Positions 379 to 52,518 are shown, counted from the first letter of the stretch. The stretch is 58,765 nucleotides of DNA from Candidatus Eiseniibacteriota bacterium (GCA_031413115.1 JANOEH010000089.1:1-58765), one strand, 5' to 3'. Made by a program: numbers and translations. The notes: generated from the letters alone by a model not told the origin.

Positions 379-1014
379 ATGGACCTGGTTACGAAGATTC
401 GTTTCCGTAGTGCGCTCGGCATCGTCGCGCTCCTGCTCGTTGCTCCGCGTGTGGAGGCCGAAGAGGTCACGCACCGGTTCACCGGTGCGCTCACGACGGT
501 CACCAACGGCTCCGGCCTCACGGCCGATCTCACCGGCCTGTTCTCGCTGGGCGAGGCGGTGACGTTCGAGTACACGATCGAGCGCAATACGACGGGCGTC
601 CCGCAGGACGCCTACGTCACCGGCTACCAGGACGCGCTCACGGCGTTCGCGTTCTCCATCGGGAGCTATGCGGGCTCCGGTACGCCGACATACTCGCTCA
701 CCACGGTGACCAACAATGCGCCGTACGATCAGTACTCGGCGCAGGTGCAGGGTGGCATCACGACCCCGCCCCTCGGCAACACCATGATGCAGTCGCTGAC
801 GTACACGCTCGACGACGTACAGGGGACGGTGTTCGGGTCGCAGGCGATCCCGCGGGAGTTCCCGGAGCTGAGCGTGTTCGAGGGCAAGACCTTCACGGTC
901 CTGTTCTTCGACTTCACGCAGCTCAGGTCCGGATACGTGATGGCGACGCTCGCGGGGGTGTCGACGCCGGCCGTGCCGTCGACCTGGGGTGGCGTAAAGG
1001 CGCTCTACCGATAG
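379..1014 (+). CDS. Secreted beta-rich hypothetical protein with C-terminal TWG-tail motif
   Basis: GGAGG SD before ATG 379; signal peptide (SALGIVALLLVAPRVEA); T/S/G/F-rich body; ends TPAVPSTWGGVKALYR. Confidence 0.85.
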   Translation: MDLVTKIRFRSALGIVALLLVAPRVEAEEVTHRFTGALTTVTNGSGLTADLTGLFSLGEAVTFEYTIERNTTGVPQDAYVTGYQDALTAFAFSIGSYAGSGTPTYSLTTVTNNAPYDQYSAQVQGGITTPPLGNTMMQSLTYTLDDVQGTVFGSQAIPREFPELSVFEGKTFTVLFFDFTQLRSGYVMATLAGVSTPAVPSTWGGVKALYR

Positions 1015-1022
1015 GTCACGAC

Positions 1023-4000
1023 TCACCACCCCCCGAGCCGCACGAAGCGCGCAGTCTCTTGCTCACCCTCGGCGGCGAGGCGCACGAAGTAAATCCCTGC
1101 GGGCGCTGCGCGCCCGGAGCTATCGCGACCGTCCCAGGCGAGCGTGGTCTCTCCCCCCGCCGCTTCTCCATCGAAGAGCCGGCGTACCCGTGTGCCGCGC
1201 ACGTCGTGGATGTCGAGTCGCACGCGCGCCGCGTGTGGCAGCGAGAACGCGATGCGCGACGCGGTTGTTCCGCCGGCTGGGCTCGGCGCCACGGCACGCA
1301 GGCTCGGCCGATCCCTCCGTGCGGGCTCGAACGGTTCCACCGACACCGCGGTCCCGGCGAAGCGGAAGTCGTGCTCTCCCATGGAGCGTGCGTCGACGGC
1401 GACCCACGGTGAGCGCTGGAAGTAGGGCGAGCGCGTGTACTGCCGCGCACGCACGTGGAACGCGGTCTCCGGCTGCAGAATGTCGAGCTCCTCGACCAAG
1501 GCACCCTGGTCCACCGGATTGCCGGCCTCGAGCGTGTGCGGCCCGGTGATCGTCGGCACGCCGGTGAAGACCTCGTTCTGGGTGCGAACCTCGAACTGGA
1601 GGCCCATGCGCGTGCGACCCATCGGGGCGTGCGGGAAGAGGCCGGCCCGCACCGCGTGATCGCTCGTGTTCCGCGCCGGCGAGTGGAGCACGCGACCGTC
1701 CAGCGGATCGATCAACAGGAGCTGGTGCCGGCGACCGCGCCCTCCGCCGCCGAGCCCGACGAAGACGCGACCCGCGCCGGGCGCGCCGACGATCCAGTCG
1801 GCGAACCCGTCGGCGTTGACGTCGGCCAGCGGCGCGAGGCTCCCTCCCATCTCGGCGCCGAACAGGTTCGGCTCGAGCGTGACGGTCGGCTGCGTTTCGG
1901 GCAGGAGGAGCGCGCCGAAGTACAGGTAGGCGCGGCCCTCGTCGGTCTGCCCGCCGTCGAAGCCCGGCTGGCCGATCGCGAACTCGCCGAAACCGTCGCC
2001 GTCGATGTCGCCGCCGCCCGCCATCGTCTCGCCCATGCGCCCGCCGTCCTGCGTGCCGGCGTAGATCTTGAGCGGAGCGCGGGATTGCGAGCGTCCCAGG
2101 CTCCCGGCGTAGACGCGCGCGACGCCCTTGTTGTCCTCGAGCGGAGCGCCGACGCCGAGATCAGACACGCCGTCGCCGTTGACGTCGCCGAGCGCCGCCA
2201 CGGCCGCGCCGAACGTGACGGTCGTCGAGGTGAGGACGAATCCGGGAGCGTTTGCCGGACCACTCGGGCTGCCGTAGTGGACCTGCACCCTCCCATCGAG
2301 TTGCGGTCCGCCGAATGGCGAGGTCGAGCCGATCGCGACGTCGGTCCAGCCGTCGCCGTCGAAGTCGAGCAGCGCGACGCCGGCGCCCAGACCCTGGCCC
2401 GCCTCGCTGCCCTCGATCGTCCACGGGGCCGGCGGTGTGGGGCCGCCGAAGACGACCCATGCCTTGCCGGCGTTCGACAGCGTCGCCGTGTCCGCCTCGC
2501 GCGCGCCGATCTGCACGTCGTGGTAGCCGTCTCCGTTGACGTCGCCGCGGCCGGCCAGGGCGCTGCCCACACGGTCGAAGTCGCGTGTGCCCGCCAGCAG
2601 CGGGACCGGTGCTGCAGGCGTCGTCTCCGTGCCGCGCACCAGGTCGACGCGCCCGACCTGGGAGATCGGGTTCTGGAACGTTCCCCCATTGATCCCCGGC
2701 GACGACACGACGTAGTCGCCGAAGCCGTCGCCGTCGAAGTCGCCGGCGTCGGCCACGCGGGTTCCCAGGGCCTGCGCGTTCACGTTGCTCGTGACCGCGT
2801 GTCGGATCGTGGTCGAGAGTCCGGCCACGCCACCGCCCTCGTACTCGGTGACGCGTCCGAAGCCGTCGAACTGCGGGTCGCCGATCACGAGCCGCGGCAA
2901 CGCGAGAATGCTGCGGATCTGGACGATCGCCAGCGAGTTGCCGAAGCGCGTCCCGAGCTGCGGTCCGATCAGCGGCCAGCCCGTCGCGGTGCCGAGAACT
3001 CGCTGCAGCCGGCCGCGCAGGTCGATGCGGCCCGCGAAGTCTCCGCCGGCAGTGAAGTCGGAGACGAGGATCTCGCCGATGCCGTCCCCGTCGACGTCGC
3101 CGGATGGGCCGATCGACCCGGCGAATTGGCCCCCGCCCGGTGGCGAGATGAGCTCCCCCAGCTGGACGAACGCGGGGCCGCCGCCGAACACGATGGCGTG
3201 CCCGTTGTTCGTCGGGGGGTTCCGGCCGCTGACCGCGAACTCGGAGTAGCCGTCGCCGTCGGTGTCGCCGAGCGTGGCGACAACGAGCCCGTAGCGTTCC
3301 AGCGCCACGGGGTTCGGGTTGTTCAGTTGCGTGCGCGAGCCGGCTCCGTCCGGGCCCCCGAAGGCGATGTCGGCGCGACCGACCGCCACACCGTTGCCGG
3401 GCGAGCCGAACAGGACATCGGCGTAGCCGTCCCCGTTCACGTCGCCGGCCGTCGACACGGAAACGCCGCAGAACGCATCGATGCTCAGCCCCGGGAACTC
3501 CACGTTCTGGACCGCCTCGATCCCCGTCGCCGAGCCATGGAAGATTCGCACGATCCCGCCGCGGAGAAACGGTGAGTCCGCCTCGGGGGCGCTGATGATG
3601 ACGTCGTCGAAGCCATCGCCATTCACGTCGCCCGCCGTGGCAGCCTTCTCGCCGAACCGGGTCGAGGCCGCCGGGCCGATGAGCGTTCGCGCAGGAGCGG
3701 CCGCCAGGCCCGCCGGACCGCCGTGATAGATGTACGCCGCACCGCGCCGCTGAATGCCGCCCTCCACGTAGAGCGAGGTCGACACGACGACGTCGGCGAA
3801 GCCGTCGCCGTTGACGTCCCCGGCGAAGTCCGCACAGTTGCCGAACAATTGTGTGTCCGCCGGCGACGGCGGGAGGAGCTCGTAGTTCGGCGCCGCCGGG
3901 AGTCCCGCGGGTCCGCCGTGGAAGATCGCGACGCGGCCGGCGCTGGGATGATTGAGGAAGGTCGCGAAAGGGAGGGTCAACAGGATGTCGCCGTAGCCGT

Positions 4001-51316: not shown

Positions 51317-51353
51317 GGGGCGGGGGGACGCACCCCCCCGCCCCATTTCGTTT
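51317..51353 (+). terminator. Intrinsic terminator
   Basis: GGGGCGGGGGG...CCCCCCGCCCC followed by ATTTCGTTT. Confidence 0.7.
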
Positions 51354-51591
51354 CCCCGGACAAATTGTCCCTTTACTTCCTGTTTCAATCTGCGATAGTA
51401 CCTCGCAGCCGAAATCAGGGCGTTCGATCTCCCCATCGGACAGCGGGTCGGCACATCGATTTTGTCGAACTCCAGGATACGTCCGCTGCCCCTGATTCCG
51501 TCCCGAATCGCCGCCCCCGGCGATTCGCAGCCGCTTCTCTGGTTGCGCGTTGAGCACGCAGGATTTCAACCCCCGCTTAAGGAGAGACTCC

Positions 51592-52518
51592 ATGAAGCTG
51601 AATCGCGTACGCATGTTGGTCGCAGCCGCCGTCGGATTGTCCGTCGCCGCCGGACCGGTCGCCGCCCAGGCCCTCGACGCGCCGCTGGTCAACGCGATGC
51701 AGAGCAAGCCGAGCTCGGTCCGCCTCATGGTCATCGCCGGCGCGAGCGGTGCTCCGGCCGGCTTCGAGGTGCAGTGGATCACGAAGGCCGAGTTCGACCT
51801 CCTTGGCGGCTTCCCCGCCGATGGCGTCGCTTCGACGCTGGTCGAGGGCACGTTTGACGGCACGCCGACGTTCAACATCGAGGGCAGTGCTGACTCGTAC
51901 ATCCTGGGGCCCGCCGAGGGCATCGAAGTCGAACTGGGCCAGCTCTTTGACGAGACCGGCGTCTCGGACGTCACGCTGGAAGAGGCTGTCGAGCTCGAAC
52001 CTGGCACTCAGTACGTCGTGCGCGTGCGCACGCAGGGCGCCGGCGCCGGTGCGCCGAGCGACTACACCGACGCGATGATCGTCAACAGCGCGCCGCTGGC
52101 GGCCAATTGCACATACACGCAAGGCTTCTGGAAGAACCACTTCGAGCTGTGGCCGGTGACGAGCCTGACGCTGGGCACCGTCAACTACACCGCGGCTGAA
52201 TTGCTGGCGATCTTCAACCAGCCCGCCGGCGGCAACAAGCTGATCATCCTCGCGCACCAGCTGATCGCGGCGAAGCTGAACCTCGCCAACGGAGCCGATC
52301 CCAGCGCCTCGGCTGCGACCATTGCGGCGGCGGATGCGATCATCGGCGCGCTGGTCGTCCCGCCCATCGGCGGCGACGACCTGCCGAACAACCCGGCGGT
52401 CGACTACGCGAACCTGCTCGACGACTACAACAACGGCCTGATCGGCCCGGGCCACTGCGGCACGGTGCCGGCCTCGGCCGCGACATGGGGCCAGGTGAAG
52501 TCGCTTTACCGCCAGTAA
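51592..52518 (+). CDS. Tandem paralog of 50380..51288 with TWG tail
   Basis: TAAGGAG SD; shares GASGAPAGF, EGIEVELGQLFDETGV, NCTYTQGxWKNH, HQLIAAKLNLANGA; ends VPASAATWGQVKSLYRQ. Confidence 0.9.
   Translation: MKLNRVRMLVAAAVGLSVAAGPVAAQALDAPLVNAMQSKPSSVRLMVIAGASGAPAGFEVQWITKAEFDLLGGFPADGVASTLVEGTFDGTPTFNIEGSADSYILGPAEGIEVELGQLFDETGVSDVTLEEAVELEPGTQYVVRVRTQGAGAGAPSDYTDAMIVNSAPLAANCTYTQGFWKNHFELWPVTSLTLGTVNYTAAELLAIFNQPAGGNKLIILAHQLIAAKLNLANGADPSASAATIAAADAIIGALVVPPIGGDDLPNNPAVDYANLLDDYNNGLIGPGHCGTVPASAATWGQVKSLYRQ

Follow-up and report, generated by a model that had tools for sequence, protein, structure and literature searches.

A short C-terminal tag on exported proteins of Candidatus Eisenbacteria and a sister phylum, with a candidate peptidase partner

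Six genes of the window end in the same tail

The window, a 58,765-nucleotide stretch of DNA from Candidatus Eiseniibacteriota, contains six genes whose products end almost identically. The initial annotation had placed all six tails correctly, and each lies 1-2 residues before the stop codon. Gene A (379..1014, plus strand) encodes an exported protein of 211 aa without a Pfam family, which carries the signal peptide MDLVTKIRFRSALGIVALLLVAPRVEA and ends in TPAVPSTWGGVKALYR-stop (WG-to-stop, 985-1014); its single-sequence AF2 model was uninformative (pLDDT 35). Gene B (4560..5123, minus strand) is a truncated, lamin-tail-like remnant that ends in 16 protein letters (not shown) and a stop codon (WG-to-stop, 4560-4589). 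It weakly matches the ExeM/LTD region (NF033680, 35.7 bits); its N-terminal part is missing, with neither an in-frame start nor a signal peptide, and the upstream frame is taken by a separate complete gene. Gene C (8348..9145, minus strand), also exported and without a Pfam family, encodes 265 aa ending in VPVNQTSWGRVKSQYKN-stop (WG-to-stop, 8348-8380) and lies 130 bp upstream of a Ser/Thr kinase gene (5522-8218) on the same strand. The exported 263-aa product of gene D (29937..30728, minus strand) ends in VAALPKSWGGVKAHYR-stop (WG-to-stop, 29937-29966) and was assigned by Pfam to DUF7450 (PF24247; 112.3 bits over residues 93-241, cut-off 27), with the tail outside the model. Its AF2 model (pLDDT 91.8) shows a beta body up to residue 248, coil at 249-254, and a tail (255-262) that is drawn helical at a pLDDT of about 55. 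Genes E (50380..51288; 302 aa) and F (51592..52518; 308 aa), both exported and on the plus strand, are tandem paralogues with 62% identity over 270 aa; E has a weak fn3-like stretch and ends in VPATAATWGTVKAIYRH-stop (WG-to-stop, 51256-51288), and F ends in VPASAATWGQVKSLYRQ-stop (WG-to-stop, 52486-52518).

The five intact genes A, C, D, E and F each have a start and a Sec-type signal, as had been proposed, gene B being the truncated one. The further claim of five unrelated bodies holds at the BLAST level, with E and F as the sole related pair in the window. Among the tail proteins of the genome, genes A, B and C had no BLAST relative, and gene D paired only with one tail gene on contig C170.

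The tail is confined to the extreme C-terminus

The window holds six copies of the motif WGx[VIL]Kxx[YFW], and a six-frame scan of the genome gave 51; in all 51 cases a stop codon followed 1-5 residues after it. The reversed motif gave a single match, which was internal, and three permuted motifs gave none. An HMM scan of the genome, of the kind that the initial annotation had suggested, was made with a model of the 51 genomic tails and covered all 49,977 stop-to-stop ORFs; all 55 matches of at least 12.9 bits finished within 0-5 residues of the end of their ORF, and none that spanned the whole model was internal. The claim that the motif always sits at the extreme C-terminus is thus borne out by both searches. 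Other genomes contributed 114 loci, in which a stop followed the motif within 1-6 residues in 151 of 152 matches, including all 29 that stood outside the DNA-pattern selection.

The consensus given earlier stood in its core but was too short, for the conserved stretch reaches further upstream ([PS]-[TV]-P-A-x-P). The fuller form is [PS]-[TV]-P-A-x-P-x-[ST]-W-G-x-[VIL]-K-[AS]-x-Y-R-(x)-stop, a tail of about 17 residues composed of W, V/I/L and Y plus K and R. W, G and K are invariant (51/51 in the genome, 151/151 in other genomes), and the spacing from the Tyr to the stop is 1, 2 or 5 residues. The final residue is Arg in 31 of the 51 tails and Lys in only five. Proteins end 1-2 (rarely 5) residues past Y-R, with no TM helix and no basic cluster.

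Tagged proteins are small, exported and of many kinds

Grouped by body, the 51 tail proteins fell into 38 BLAST clusters; Pfam recognised propeller, CHRD, lamin-tail and CBM families on bodies other than that of gene D. When one rule was applied throughout, signal peptides were present in 38 of the 51 tail ORFs compared with 495 of 1854 other genes; by eye, about 45 of the 51 qualified. The cargo is small (about 50-440 aa from the chosen start), and in both the consensus and the gene D model the tail stands apart from the folded part, behind a Pro-rich linker. These data support the reading of the tail as a tag confined to the C-terminus of Sec-exported proteins whose bodies are otherwise unrelated. 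The tagged proteins are small, Sec-exported and mostly of a binding type.

The tail is lineage-wide

To our knowledge, Eisenbacteria are a common phylum of soil and groundwater with no cultured member. The tail DNA pattern was present in 190 of 206 Eisenbacteria genomes (reversed control, 2 matches in total) and in 67 of the 81 genomes sampled from a second phylum, Krumholzibacteria (control, 1 match), which agrees with the mention in the initial annotation of similar ends in related candidate phyla. Among homologues of the DUF7450 body of gene D, 114 of 120 bore the tail. At the 114 tail loci of other genomes, no conserved non-cargo neighbour gene was found. The tail is therefore conserved across hundreds of genomes, from Candidatus Eisenbacteria and from one or more sister phyla, and it marks roughly 50 proteins per Eisenbacteria genome in addition to those of the sister phylum.

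The tail differs from known sorting signals

C-terminal sorting tags (LPXTG, PEP-CTERM, the T9SS CTD and others) let annotators recognise surface proteomes, and each of them gave access to a secretion or anchoring pathway. Searches of Pfam and NCBIfam returned no model that matches the tail, so that no characterised HMM in either collection accounts for it, and a literature search found no paper describing it; the tagged proteins are consequently filed as unrelated hypotheticals. With a tail HMM, thousands of proteins could be annotated together, and the surface or exported proteome of both phyla would be delimited. A clue to function came from the DUF4394 body, of which one among 150 representatives carries the tail. 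Other homologues end in TIGR04183 (T9SS CTD), IPTL-CTERM or MYXO-CTERM, as verified on four of nine scanned. Since known sorting signals occupy the same place in these homologues, the tail is itself probably a sorting or anchoring tag of some kind.

It is very improbable that the tail is merely a degenerate form of a known signal, be it PEP-CTERM/exosortase, LPXTG/sortase, GlyGly-CTERM/rhombosortase or a minimal T9SS CTD read by ordinary PorU/PorV. The last version draws on the full T9SS of the genome: SprA, PorU (contig C92, 566 bits) with a PorV-like gene immediately after it, as well as 67 CTD matches. Both tail and CTD are borne as C-terminal signals by Sec-exported proteins in the FCB group of bacteria. 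However, 17 residues cannot fold the Ig-like CTD of roughly 70 residues, and the tail is, as had been noted, far shorter and without a TM segment. The type A CTD model (TIGR04183 / Por_Secre_tail; cut-off 23 bits) had no match in the six window proteins at E up to 10, nor did any NCBIfam sorting-signal model. By coordinates, the 67 genomic TIGR04183 matches all fall outside the 51 tail ORFs, so tail and CTD never share one protein in this genome; CTD matches, unlike the small tail cargo, lie in open frames of up to 1742 aa. T9SS parts occurred in every genome searched, tail-poor ones too (TIGR04183, 206/206; SprA, 81/81), and T9SS presence therefore neither predicts nor excludes the tail. In one family (f18), CTDs were present in 41 of 41 genomes, yet each genome had only 0-4 pattern tails.

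PEP-CTERM signals resemble the tail in having a Pro-containing motif near the C-terminus of varied exported proteins and in being lineage-specific, and [TV]-P-A ... [ST]-W is loosely like VPEP..TW. The echo suggested by the initial annotation did not hold up: the tail lacks the TM helix and the Arg cluster, a search of the 90%-complete genome for exosortase (PF09721) gave no match, an absence limited by that incompleteness, and the sole PEP-CTERM row on the six window proteins (E 0.23) lay over a signal peptide. The tail likewise has no hydrophobic segment after the motif, as LPXTG and GlyGly-CTERM would require, and neither matched the six proteins in NCBIfam. Being short and without a TM helix, the tail cannot work like the TM-dependent signals, and those systems are largely refuted as its explanation.

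The OMP beta-signal, an aromatic last residue on a beta-barrel protein, and the Lpp C-terminus (..YRK) were also compared. The tail shares with them an amphipathic C-terminal segment with an aromatic near the end, and its Y-R recalls the Lpp Y-R-K. It was rejected as an OMP beta-signal: it is usually Arg-final rather than aromatic, the beta-rich gene D model shows no barrel, and the other bodies are too small or belong to non-barrel families.

The hydrophobic pattern fits a strand better than a helix

The tail had been proposed to be a short amphipathic helix. Its helical hydrophobic moment was no better than that of shuffled tails (70 of 500 reached it), whereas its beta-strand moment was 0.48-0.59 compared with 0.32-0.35 for shuffles, and none of the 500 reached it. 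The pattern thus fits a beta-strand better, and the helix in the AF2 model of gene D is of low confidence.

A machinery-free element that binds the membrane or lipopolysaccharide through interfacial Trp and Tyr and through Lys and Arg contacting the phosphates would suit the composition of the tail and its detachment behind the Pro-rich linker; MinD and FtsA have C-terminal membrane-targeting sequences. We consider this improbable. Lipid-binding helices usually conserve only a physicochemical pattern, but here W, G and K are invariant, [TV]-P-A is kept at a fixed spacing, the helical moment does not exceed that of shuffles, and there is an operon link to a peptidase (see below).

Kinase genes lie near some tail genes

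A Ser/Thr kinase gene was located within 4 kb of 11 of the 51 tail loci of the genome, compared with 3.3 +/- 1.7 for random genes; none of 2000 samples reached 11. These kinases carry PD40 or TPR regions. The tail could accordingly be a mark that serves not for sorting but for recognition in the periplasm by a partner in quality control or signalling, for example a PDZ C-terminal processing protease or the TPR/PD40 ectodomains of kinases, and its terminal position would suit such partners, as PDZ and TPR domains read terminal positions. One of the 11 cases is, however, an antisense ORF artefact (the remaining 10 are all on the same strand), and at the 114 loci of other genomes a kinase lay within 5 kb of only 8 of 150 tails. 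A stop that falls 1, 2 or 5 residues past the Tyr is ill-suited to a strict carboxylate reader, and the choice-of-anchor pattern of DUF4394 would be left unexplained. This role is highly unlikely.

A C25 peptidase is encoded beside tail genes in the second phylum

The genome encodes a PorU-related C25 peptidase paralogue (contig C113:5427-8846) with its own FlgD-Ig/T9SS-type C-terminal domain. Its membership of peptidase family C25 is clear (Peptidase_C25, PF01364, 187 bits, cut-off 23; plus FlgD_ig). Against the PorU model NF033707 it scored 112 bits in the genome search and 172 by hmmscan (cut-off 420), and against PorU2 (NF052324) 67.5 bits (cut-off 450); an orthologue from another genome (G222) scored 172 and 97.6 bits, respectively. 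Both cut-offs being missed, the paralogue was rejected as PorU or PorU2, and the true PorU is the one on contig C92. H665 and C703, which by inference from gingipains we take to be the catalytic pair, were invariant in 21 of 21 orthologues, and the paralogue is, as judged from these residues, conserved and catalytically intact. Of the sampled genomes, 64 of 71 in Eisenbacteria and 79 of 81 in the second phylum encode it. As a predicted T9SS cargo, the paralogue would act outside the outer membrane, which the tail proteins are not known to cross by any route.

The paralogue is directly preceded, on the same strand, by 2-4 tandem tail genes in 19 of 20 loci from the second phylum and in all of a further three (22/23). 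The 61 array proteins, of about 190 aa, form one family with signal peptides; the family had no tblastn match in the genome of the window. In Eisenbacteria the linkage is weak, with a tail gene at most 5.6 kb upstream in 3 of 20 paralogue loci and adjacent in one; the paralogue of the present genome runs off contig C113, and its upstream sequence is missing. The segment upstream of the tail is [TV]-P-A in Eisenbacteria and x-T-E-E in the sister phylum. The link between paralogue and tail is strong only in the sister phylum. The peptidase is a candidate, and its operon could simply reflect a partnership with a single tail-bearing family, without any processing of tails by the enzyme. That the C25 paralogue is the tail-processing enzyme is possible but doubtful.

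Reading the tag and its machinery

Our verdict is that the tail is a real, undescribed tag for sorting or anchoring, with a machinery that is only a candidate. The sorting system inferred in the initial annotation is upheld in that a terminal tag sits on exported, unrelated bodies; its outer-membrane export, cleavage or anchoring machine is still an inference, with the C25 paralogue as the sole concrete candidate. The best explanation overall, which we hold with slightly less than even confidence, is a genuine sorting or anchoring tag served by a dedicated enzyme. After Sec export, such an enzyme would recognise the tail, cleave in or near the conserved upstream segment, and fix the cleaved protein to a cell-surface component; the paralogue would be the best candidate for it. 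The analogy is with PorU acting on T9SS CTDs and with class C sortases acting on the pilins encoded beside them.

The class C sortases of Gram-positives are transpeptidases whose genes lie beside pilin genes, in an operon with tandem tagged subunits. Both here and with LPXTG, a short C-terminal tag occurs on many unrelated surface proteins and an enzyme gene stands next to tandem tagged subunits; the differences from LPXTG are that neither a TM helix nor a positive anchor follows the motif, that the candidate enzyme comes from family C25 and not from the sortases, and that the cell is diderm. The likeness to the T9SS extends to the enzyme, a PorU relative that keeps the C25 catalytic pair in genomes that hold a full T9SS, though one that scores below the PorU and PorU2 cut-offs. 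A fuller version, which we put forward tentatively, makes the tail a third, minimal T9SS-associated signal class of about 17 residues without a folded CTD. This class would have a PorU-type C25 sortase to itself, different from both PorU and PorU2, that cuts at the upstream segment and joins small binding modules by the dozen to the surface, among them the cohesin-like subunits of the sister phylum; this would give a cellulosome- or pilus-like display in Eisenbacteria, Krumholzibacteriota and probably Latescibacterota. The operon link provides a concrete candidate enzyme-substrate pair; if the pair is true, the range read by T9SS-type sortases widens and a very small tag for surface display becomes available.

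Non-covalent docking is the principal alternative that the arrays bring up, and we regard it as unlikely. Here the tail would be an amphipathic beta-strand held in an acceptor groove (donor-strand or beta-augmentation), the acceptor being a surface scaffold such as cohesin-like modules, so that many kinds of protein hang on one scaffold or subunits form head-to-tail polymers; maturation of the acceptor would then be the only part played by the C25 peptidase, comparable to the action of gingipains on type V pilins. The strand moment described above and the several paralogous tail proteins in one operon are consistent with docking, as are two features of the arrays. The array proteins next to the paralogue resemble cohesin (TM 0.59-0.64 with ESM Atlas's own models; two rows meet the bar for the name), and in the 20 array loci, inspected by eye, the array was often preceded by an ORF with a dockerin-like end (D-x-N-D-D...N-L-S-D-F). 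On the other side, the cohesin likeness comes from predicted models only, the array family is without a match in the present genome, AF2 draws the tail as a helix, albeit with low confidence, and [TV]-P-A at a fixed spacing is easier to understand as the site of a dedicated enzyme, as in our preferred explanation.

Type V pili of Bacteroidota are matured by gingipains, which are C25 peptidases, and polymerise via C-terminal donor strands; their pilins are lipoproteins of about 350-500 aa. The arrays are alike in combining a C25 peptidase, several small paralogous exported beta-sandwich proteins and a C-terminal strand-like segment. They differ in that the array proteins are shorter and have SPase I-type signals, and the tail occurs on dozens of unrelated bodies as well. 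The array loci include four genomes that the DNA pattern had scored as tail-less.

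Distribution of the tail in the window and in the genome

A six-frame scan of the window with the motif WGx[VIL]Kxx[YFW] returned six matches, each with a stop codon 1 or 2 residues beyond it, and recovered all six tail genes at the positions that the initial annotation had given them. Five are intact and carry a Sec-type signal peptide after the start codon, as had been described. The sixth, gene B (4560..5123, minus strand), lacks an in-frame start codon; it preserves only the C-terminal part of a lamin-tail-like protein, and the upstream frame contains a separate complete gene. 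The latter (~5085-5510, minus strand), between a kinase gene and the truncated gene B, encodes a complete small exported protein; gene B has therefore lost its own N-terminus and was not frameshifted from that gene.

The genome assembly to which the window belongs as contig C89 (G000; 3.4 Mb, 271 contigs, 70% G+C, rated 90% complete) contains 51 motif matches in six frames, and all 51 sit 1-5 residues ahead of a stop codon (+1 in 33, +2 in 16 and +5 in 2). As controls, the reversed motif matched once, internally, and three permuted motifs gave no match. The initial annotation had proposed a genome-wide scan with a tail HMM. Run with the 51 tails against all 49,977 stop-to-stop ORFs, the profile gave 55 matches of at least 12.9 bits, and the C-terminal position held for every one, with the match ending 0-5 residues from the end of the ORF; four were variants (WV, SFG and similar), and matches below 12.9 bits were all partial and of low complexity. 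Aligned on the tryptophan, the 51 tails have the consensus [PS]-[TV]-P-A-x-P-x-[ST]-W-G-x-[VIL]-K-[AS]-x-Y-R-(x)-stop, in which W, G and K are invariant (51/51) and positions -7 to -5 are T/V in 46/51, P in 38/51 and A in 40/51. The tails of the six window proteins were matched by no NCBIfam model (E up to 10) and no Pfam model (E up to 1), and a full-text literature search on the motif, and on the host phyla together with T9SS or sorting signals, returned nothing relevant as judged by title or abstract start.

Taxonomic spread

In the window's phylum, 190 of 206 genomes contained a degenerate DNA pattern for [ST]WGx(V/I/L)KxxY(R), whose reversed control gave 2 matches in all; the window's own family (f1) had 19-47 pattern matches per genome. 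The tallies for this phylum (this pattern, the distribution of T9SS C-terminal domains (CTDs) and the 71-genome count of a peptidase paralogue) include one unpublished genome, G072, on which alone no claim is made. When a stricter pattern was searched in one genome per prokaryotic species, at least 114 stretches matched. Among the 80 listed, 53 were titled Candidatus Eisenbacteria or Eiseniibacteriota, 16 were from bacteria without a name and 11 had other labels; in the last 11 the tails are real and follow signal peptides. At 114 loci of other genomes, 151 of 152 motif matches were terminal, including all 29 that lay outside the selecting pattern.

Odd bins include a 27% G+C contig (L019, 'Woesearchaeota') and a 55% G+C contig (L064, 'Patescibacteria'), and genuine tail genes were seen at L019, L064 and L059. 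In the Woesearchaeota, Patescibacteria and Planctomycetota bins (G206, G207 and G210), tail matches were confined to one to three contigs; either these contigs are mis-binned, which is likely, or the tag reaches further low-G+C lineages.

Two of the other genomes with such labels, titled Krumholzibacteria and 'Fibrobacteraceae', fall in one further GTDB phylum, whose proteins the ESM Atlas labels Candidatus Krumholzibacteriota (hereafter the second phylum). The DNA pattern was found in 67 of 81 sampled genomes of this phylum against 1 control match and, when extended through the stop codon, in 26 of 41 genomes against 0 control matches. Homologues of gene D (29937..30728, minus strand; a DUF7450 protein) had a terminal tail in 114 of 120 cases, from sources including Eisenbacteria, Krumholzibacteria and Latescibacterota, in agreement with the initial annotation, which had mentioned similar ends in related candidate phyla. 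Overall, the tail is a genuine feature, well above chance expectation, found across the phylum and lacking a model.

Proteins that carry the tail

With the tails removed, the 51 tail ORFs fell into 38 BLAST clusters (E < 1e-5), the biggest of which has four members. Pfam was run on 46 of them (all except the C14:3-113 fragment, C170:52241-52531 and those on contigs C255, C260 and C270) and matched NHL propellers (3), CHRD (3), DUF7450 (2), DUF4394, PD40, lamin-tail, CBM96, CBM_4_9, GEVED and beta-helix domains; the majority had no match. Gene starts and signal peptides were assigned by our own heuristics, and a strict home-made signal-peptide rule was passed by 38 of 51 tail ORFs and by 495 of the 1854 remaining predicted genes. 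Of the 13 tail ORFs that failed, seven (t14, t19, t23, t25, t39, t48 and t49) have obvious signal peptides in which the n-region is long or an acidic residue is present, and the other six have unclear starts, are truncated or lie at the edge of a contig; no intact, evidently cytoplasmic carrier was found among the 51.

The carriers are mostly small (~50-440 aa from the chosen start), whereas the T9SS type A CTD model matches 67 times in this genome (57 above cut-off), in open reading frames that reach 1742 aa. By coordinates, none of the 67 overlaps a tail ORF. The window itself has four large ORFs with a T9SS type A CTD-like domain at the C-terminus: 1023-4541 (minus strand; TIGR04183 match at 1041-1289, at or above cut-off), 20187-23348 (minus; 20196-20453, below cut-off), 44736-46685 (minus; 44745-44978, at or above cut-off) and 56160-58679 (plus; 58431-58667, below cut-off). 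Thus, two kinds of C-terminal signal stand side by side in the window.

The tail in the position of known anchors

The DUF4394 body of a carrier on contig C212 served as query against 1.84 billion representatives, and the best 150 were inspected. One single-domain protein among them has a terminal tail, and this homologue gave zero NCBIfam matches. By eye, ~15 of the 150 have T9SS CTD-like ends and several have a TM helix with an Arg cluster. An NCBIfam scan of nine representatives, chosen by eye from the 150, placed TIGR04183 on two, MYXO-CTERM on one and IPTL-CTERM on two (one above and one below cut-off). One passenger with interchangeable C-terminal anchors is what defines a sorting signal, and the tail takes the place of the anchor here. 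It behaves like a tag for sorting or anchoring.

A second shared end, approximately [FY]-[LM]-P-[LI]-[IV]-x-[RKQ], was seen at the extreme C-terminus of multi-repeat DUF4394 representatives (P0121, P0125, P0132, P0141, P0156, P0210 and P0267). P0141 had zero NCBIfam matches, and this shared end may be another unmodelled C-terminal tag.

Search for the sorting machinery

The initial annotation had pointed to an exosortase or T9SS components as genes that might be co-distributed with the tail. No exosortase was found in G000 (90% complete). This genome does have a SprA split over two contigs, seven PorV-like matches and a bona fide porU (C92:13661-17980, 566 bits); the top-scoring PorV-like gene (123 bits against a cut-off of 250) comes directly after porU. 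The six other PorV-like matches are scattered, and one lies next to tail genes and a CTD protein on contig C14. CTDs and SprA occur throughout both phyla and therefore give no information on tail presence. Family f18, tried as a tail-poor contrast, still has 1-3 genuine tails per genome, and the 'tail-less' second-phylum genomes hold variant tails missed by the Y-R pattern, plus the C25 paralogue described below; phylogenetic profiling therefore gave no clean presence/absence contrast. A SprA model match in one long stretch (E 1e-121 to 1e-142) was seen in nine second-phylum genomes (G211, G214, G215, G219, G221, G225, G244, G261 and G287), eight of which have 0-2 Y-R pattern tails; G221 has 14, of the usual kind, and the paralogue locus of G215 has variant tails.

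When genes up to 4 kb from the 51 tail loci of G000 were clustered, no sorting enzyme appeared, only kinases, T9SS-CTD proteins, response regulators and ABC permeases, and the clustered ORFs of 114 tail loci from other genomes included no conserved non-cargo neighbour.

A PorU-related C25 peptidase beside tandem tail genes

G000 encodes a second, divergent PorU-related protein, the C25 paralogue (C113:5427-8846, open at the contig end), which scored 112 bits against NF033707 in the genome search and 172 by hmmscan (cut-off 420), and 67.5 bits against the NCBI 'PorU2' model (cut-off 450). It has a Peptidase_C25 domain (187 bits) and a C-terminal FlgD-Ig domain, and H665 and C703 are invariant among 21 orthologues. 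With this protein as query, the best match in three of five tail-rich second-phylum genomes lay directly downstream of 2-3 tandem same-strand tail genes, and the true PorU of those three genomes was located elsewhere. A full-length orthologue was present in 79 of 81 sampled second-phylum genomes. For 20 more loci of this phylum, hand-picked across the score range (28-51% identity), the 4 kb upstream of the orthologue was analyzed; 19 had an array of 2-4 ORFs of ~180-280 aa with a terminal tail or a variant such as ...SWGAIKSLF, ...SWGAIKSMYE or ...SFGSVKSLFR, including four genomes scored tail-less by the Y-R DNA pattern. Overall, array and paralogue were linked at 22 of 23 second-phylum loci, and in three further genomes a pattern tail lies, by coordinates, 0.4-1.1 kb upstream of the orthologue.

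The array proteins of 22 loci (61 proteins; L190, the sole array-less locus, was excluded beforehand) form one family with signal peptides. They had no Pfam match, and the ESM Atlas's own model resembles cohesin (TM ~0.6), a predicted likeness that we take as a lead only.

The gene order of the second phylum, together with the parallel to PorU and to operons of sortases with pilins, leads us to infer, as the likeliest mechanism, that a dedicated PorU-type C25 peptidase would recognise and process the tail. A tail protein would have to cross the outer membrane to meet this enzyme, itself predicted to be exported by the T9SS. When residues 300-900 of the C25 paralogue were co-folded with the C-terminal 49 residues of protein D (no control runs), the score was 0.00, which is neutral as to binding.

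The operon could also reflect only that the array family works with the C25 peptidase. That family had no tblastn match in G000. The paralogue itself is kept in 64 of 71 sampled Eisenbacteria genomes, and a tail gene lies within 5.6 kb upstream at only 3 of 20 Eisenbacteria loci (hand-picked across the score range, not random, with G072 skipped), being adjacent in only one. In five f4 genomes a tail gene is found ~20 kb upstream, with unrelated genes between in the one genome examined; this is probably one inherited arrangement. In G000, the region upstream of the paralogue lies off contig C113, and an end-overlap search for a contig joining C113 found none. Nor does the paralogue run on into the downstream DNA of contig C45, which by eye holds a PEP-carboxykinase-like frame.

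Conformation of the tail

The tail had been described as a short amphipathic helix. Its hydrophobic moment at 100 degrees was 0.377, compared with 0.352 ± 0.023 for shuffles, and was reached by 70 of 500 shuffles, so the helical moment is no better than that of shuffled tails and lends the helix reading no support. At 160 and 180 degrees the moments were 0.48 and 0.59, compared with 0.35 and 0.32, and were reached by 0 of 500; the chemistry of the tail thus alternates like that of an amphipathic beta-strand. As a strand, the tail would have G, V, A and Y on one face and R, K and R on the other; if helical, its most conserved positions (0, 3, 4, 7 and 8) would share one face. This alternation is in keeping with the main rival to processing by the C25 peptidase, in which the tail would be a non-covalent donor-strand docking element.

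The AlphaFold2 model of gene D (91-sequence alignment; pLDDT 91.8) has a beta body to residue 248, coil at 249-254 and a helix at 255-262, the tail, with pLDDT ~55. Since the body ends before this low-pLDDT segment, the tail is predicted to lie outside the fold. A single-sequence AlphaFold2 model of protein A (pLDDT 35) was unusable.

Other neighbours of tail genes

In the window, a Ser/Thr kinase with PD40 repeats (5522-8218, minus strand) lies between the same-strand tail genes 8348-9145 and 4560-5123. A kinase was found within 4 kb of a tail at 11 of 51 loci in G000 (one being an antisense artefact) versus 3.3 ± 1.7 for random genes, but near only 8 of 150 tails in other genomes. The link, significant in G000 and not elsewhere, was therefore rejected as a general feature and demoted to a side note.

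At many of the 20 second-phylum loci, an ORF of ~220 aa was seen by eye to precede the array (L191:1548-2222, L192:1601-2275, L195:286-942, L196:857-1516 and others); one member had no NCBIfam match. These ORFs end in C-C-D-[YF]-N-D-D-x-x-C-N-L-S-D-F-x-F-x-G-x-H-Y-x-H-x-C, a putative dockerin- or EF-hand-like loop with conserved cysteines.
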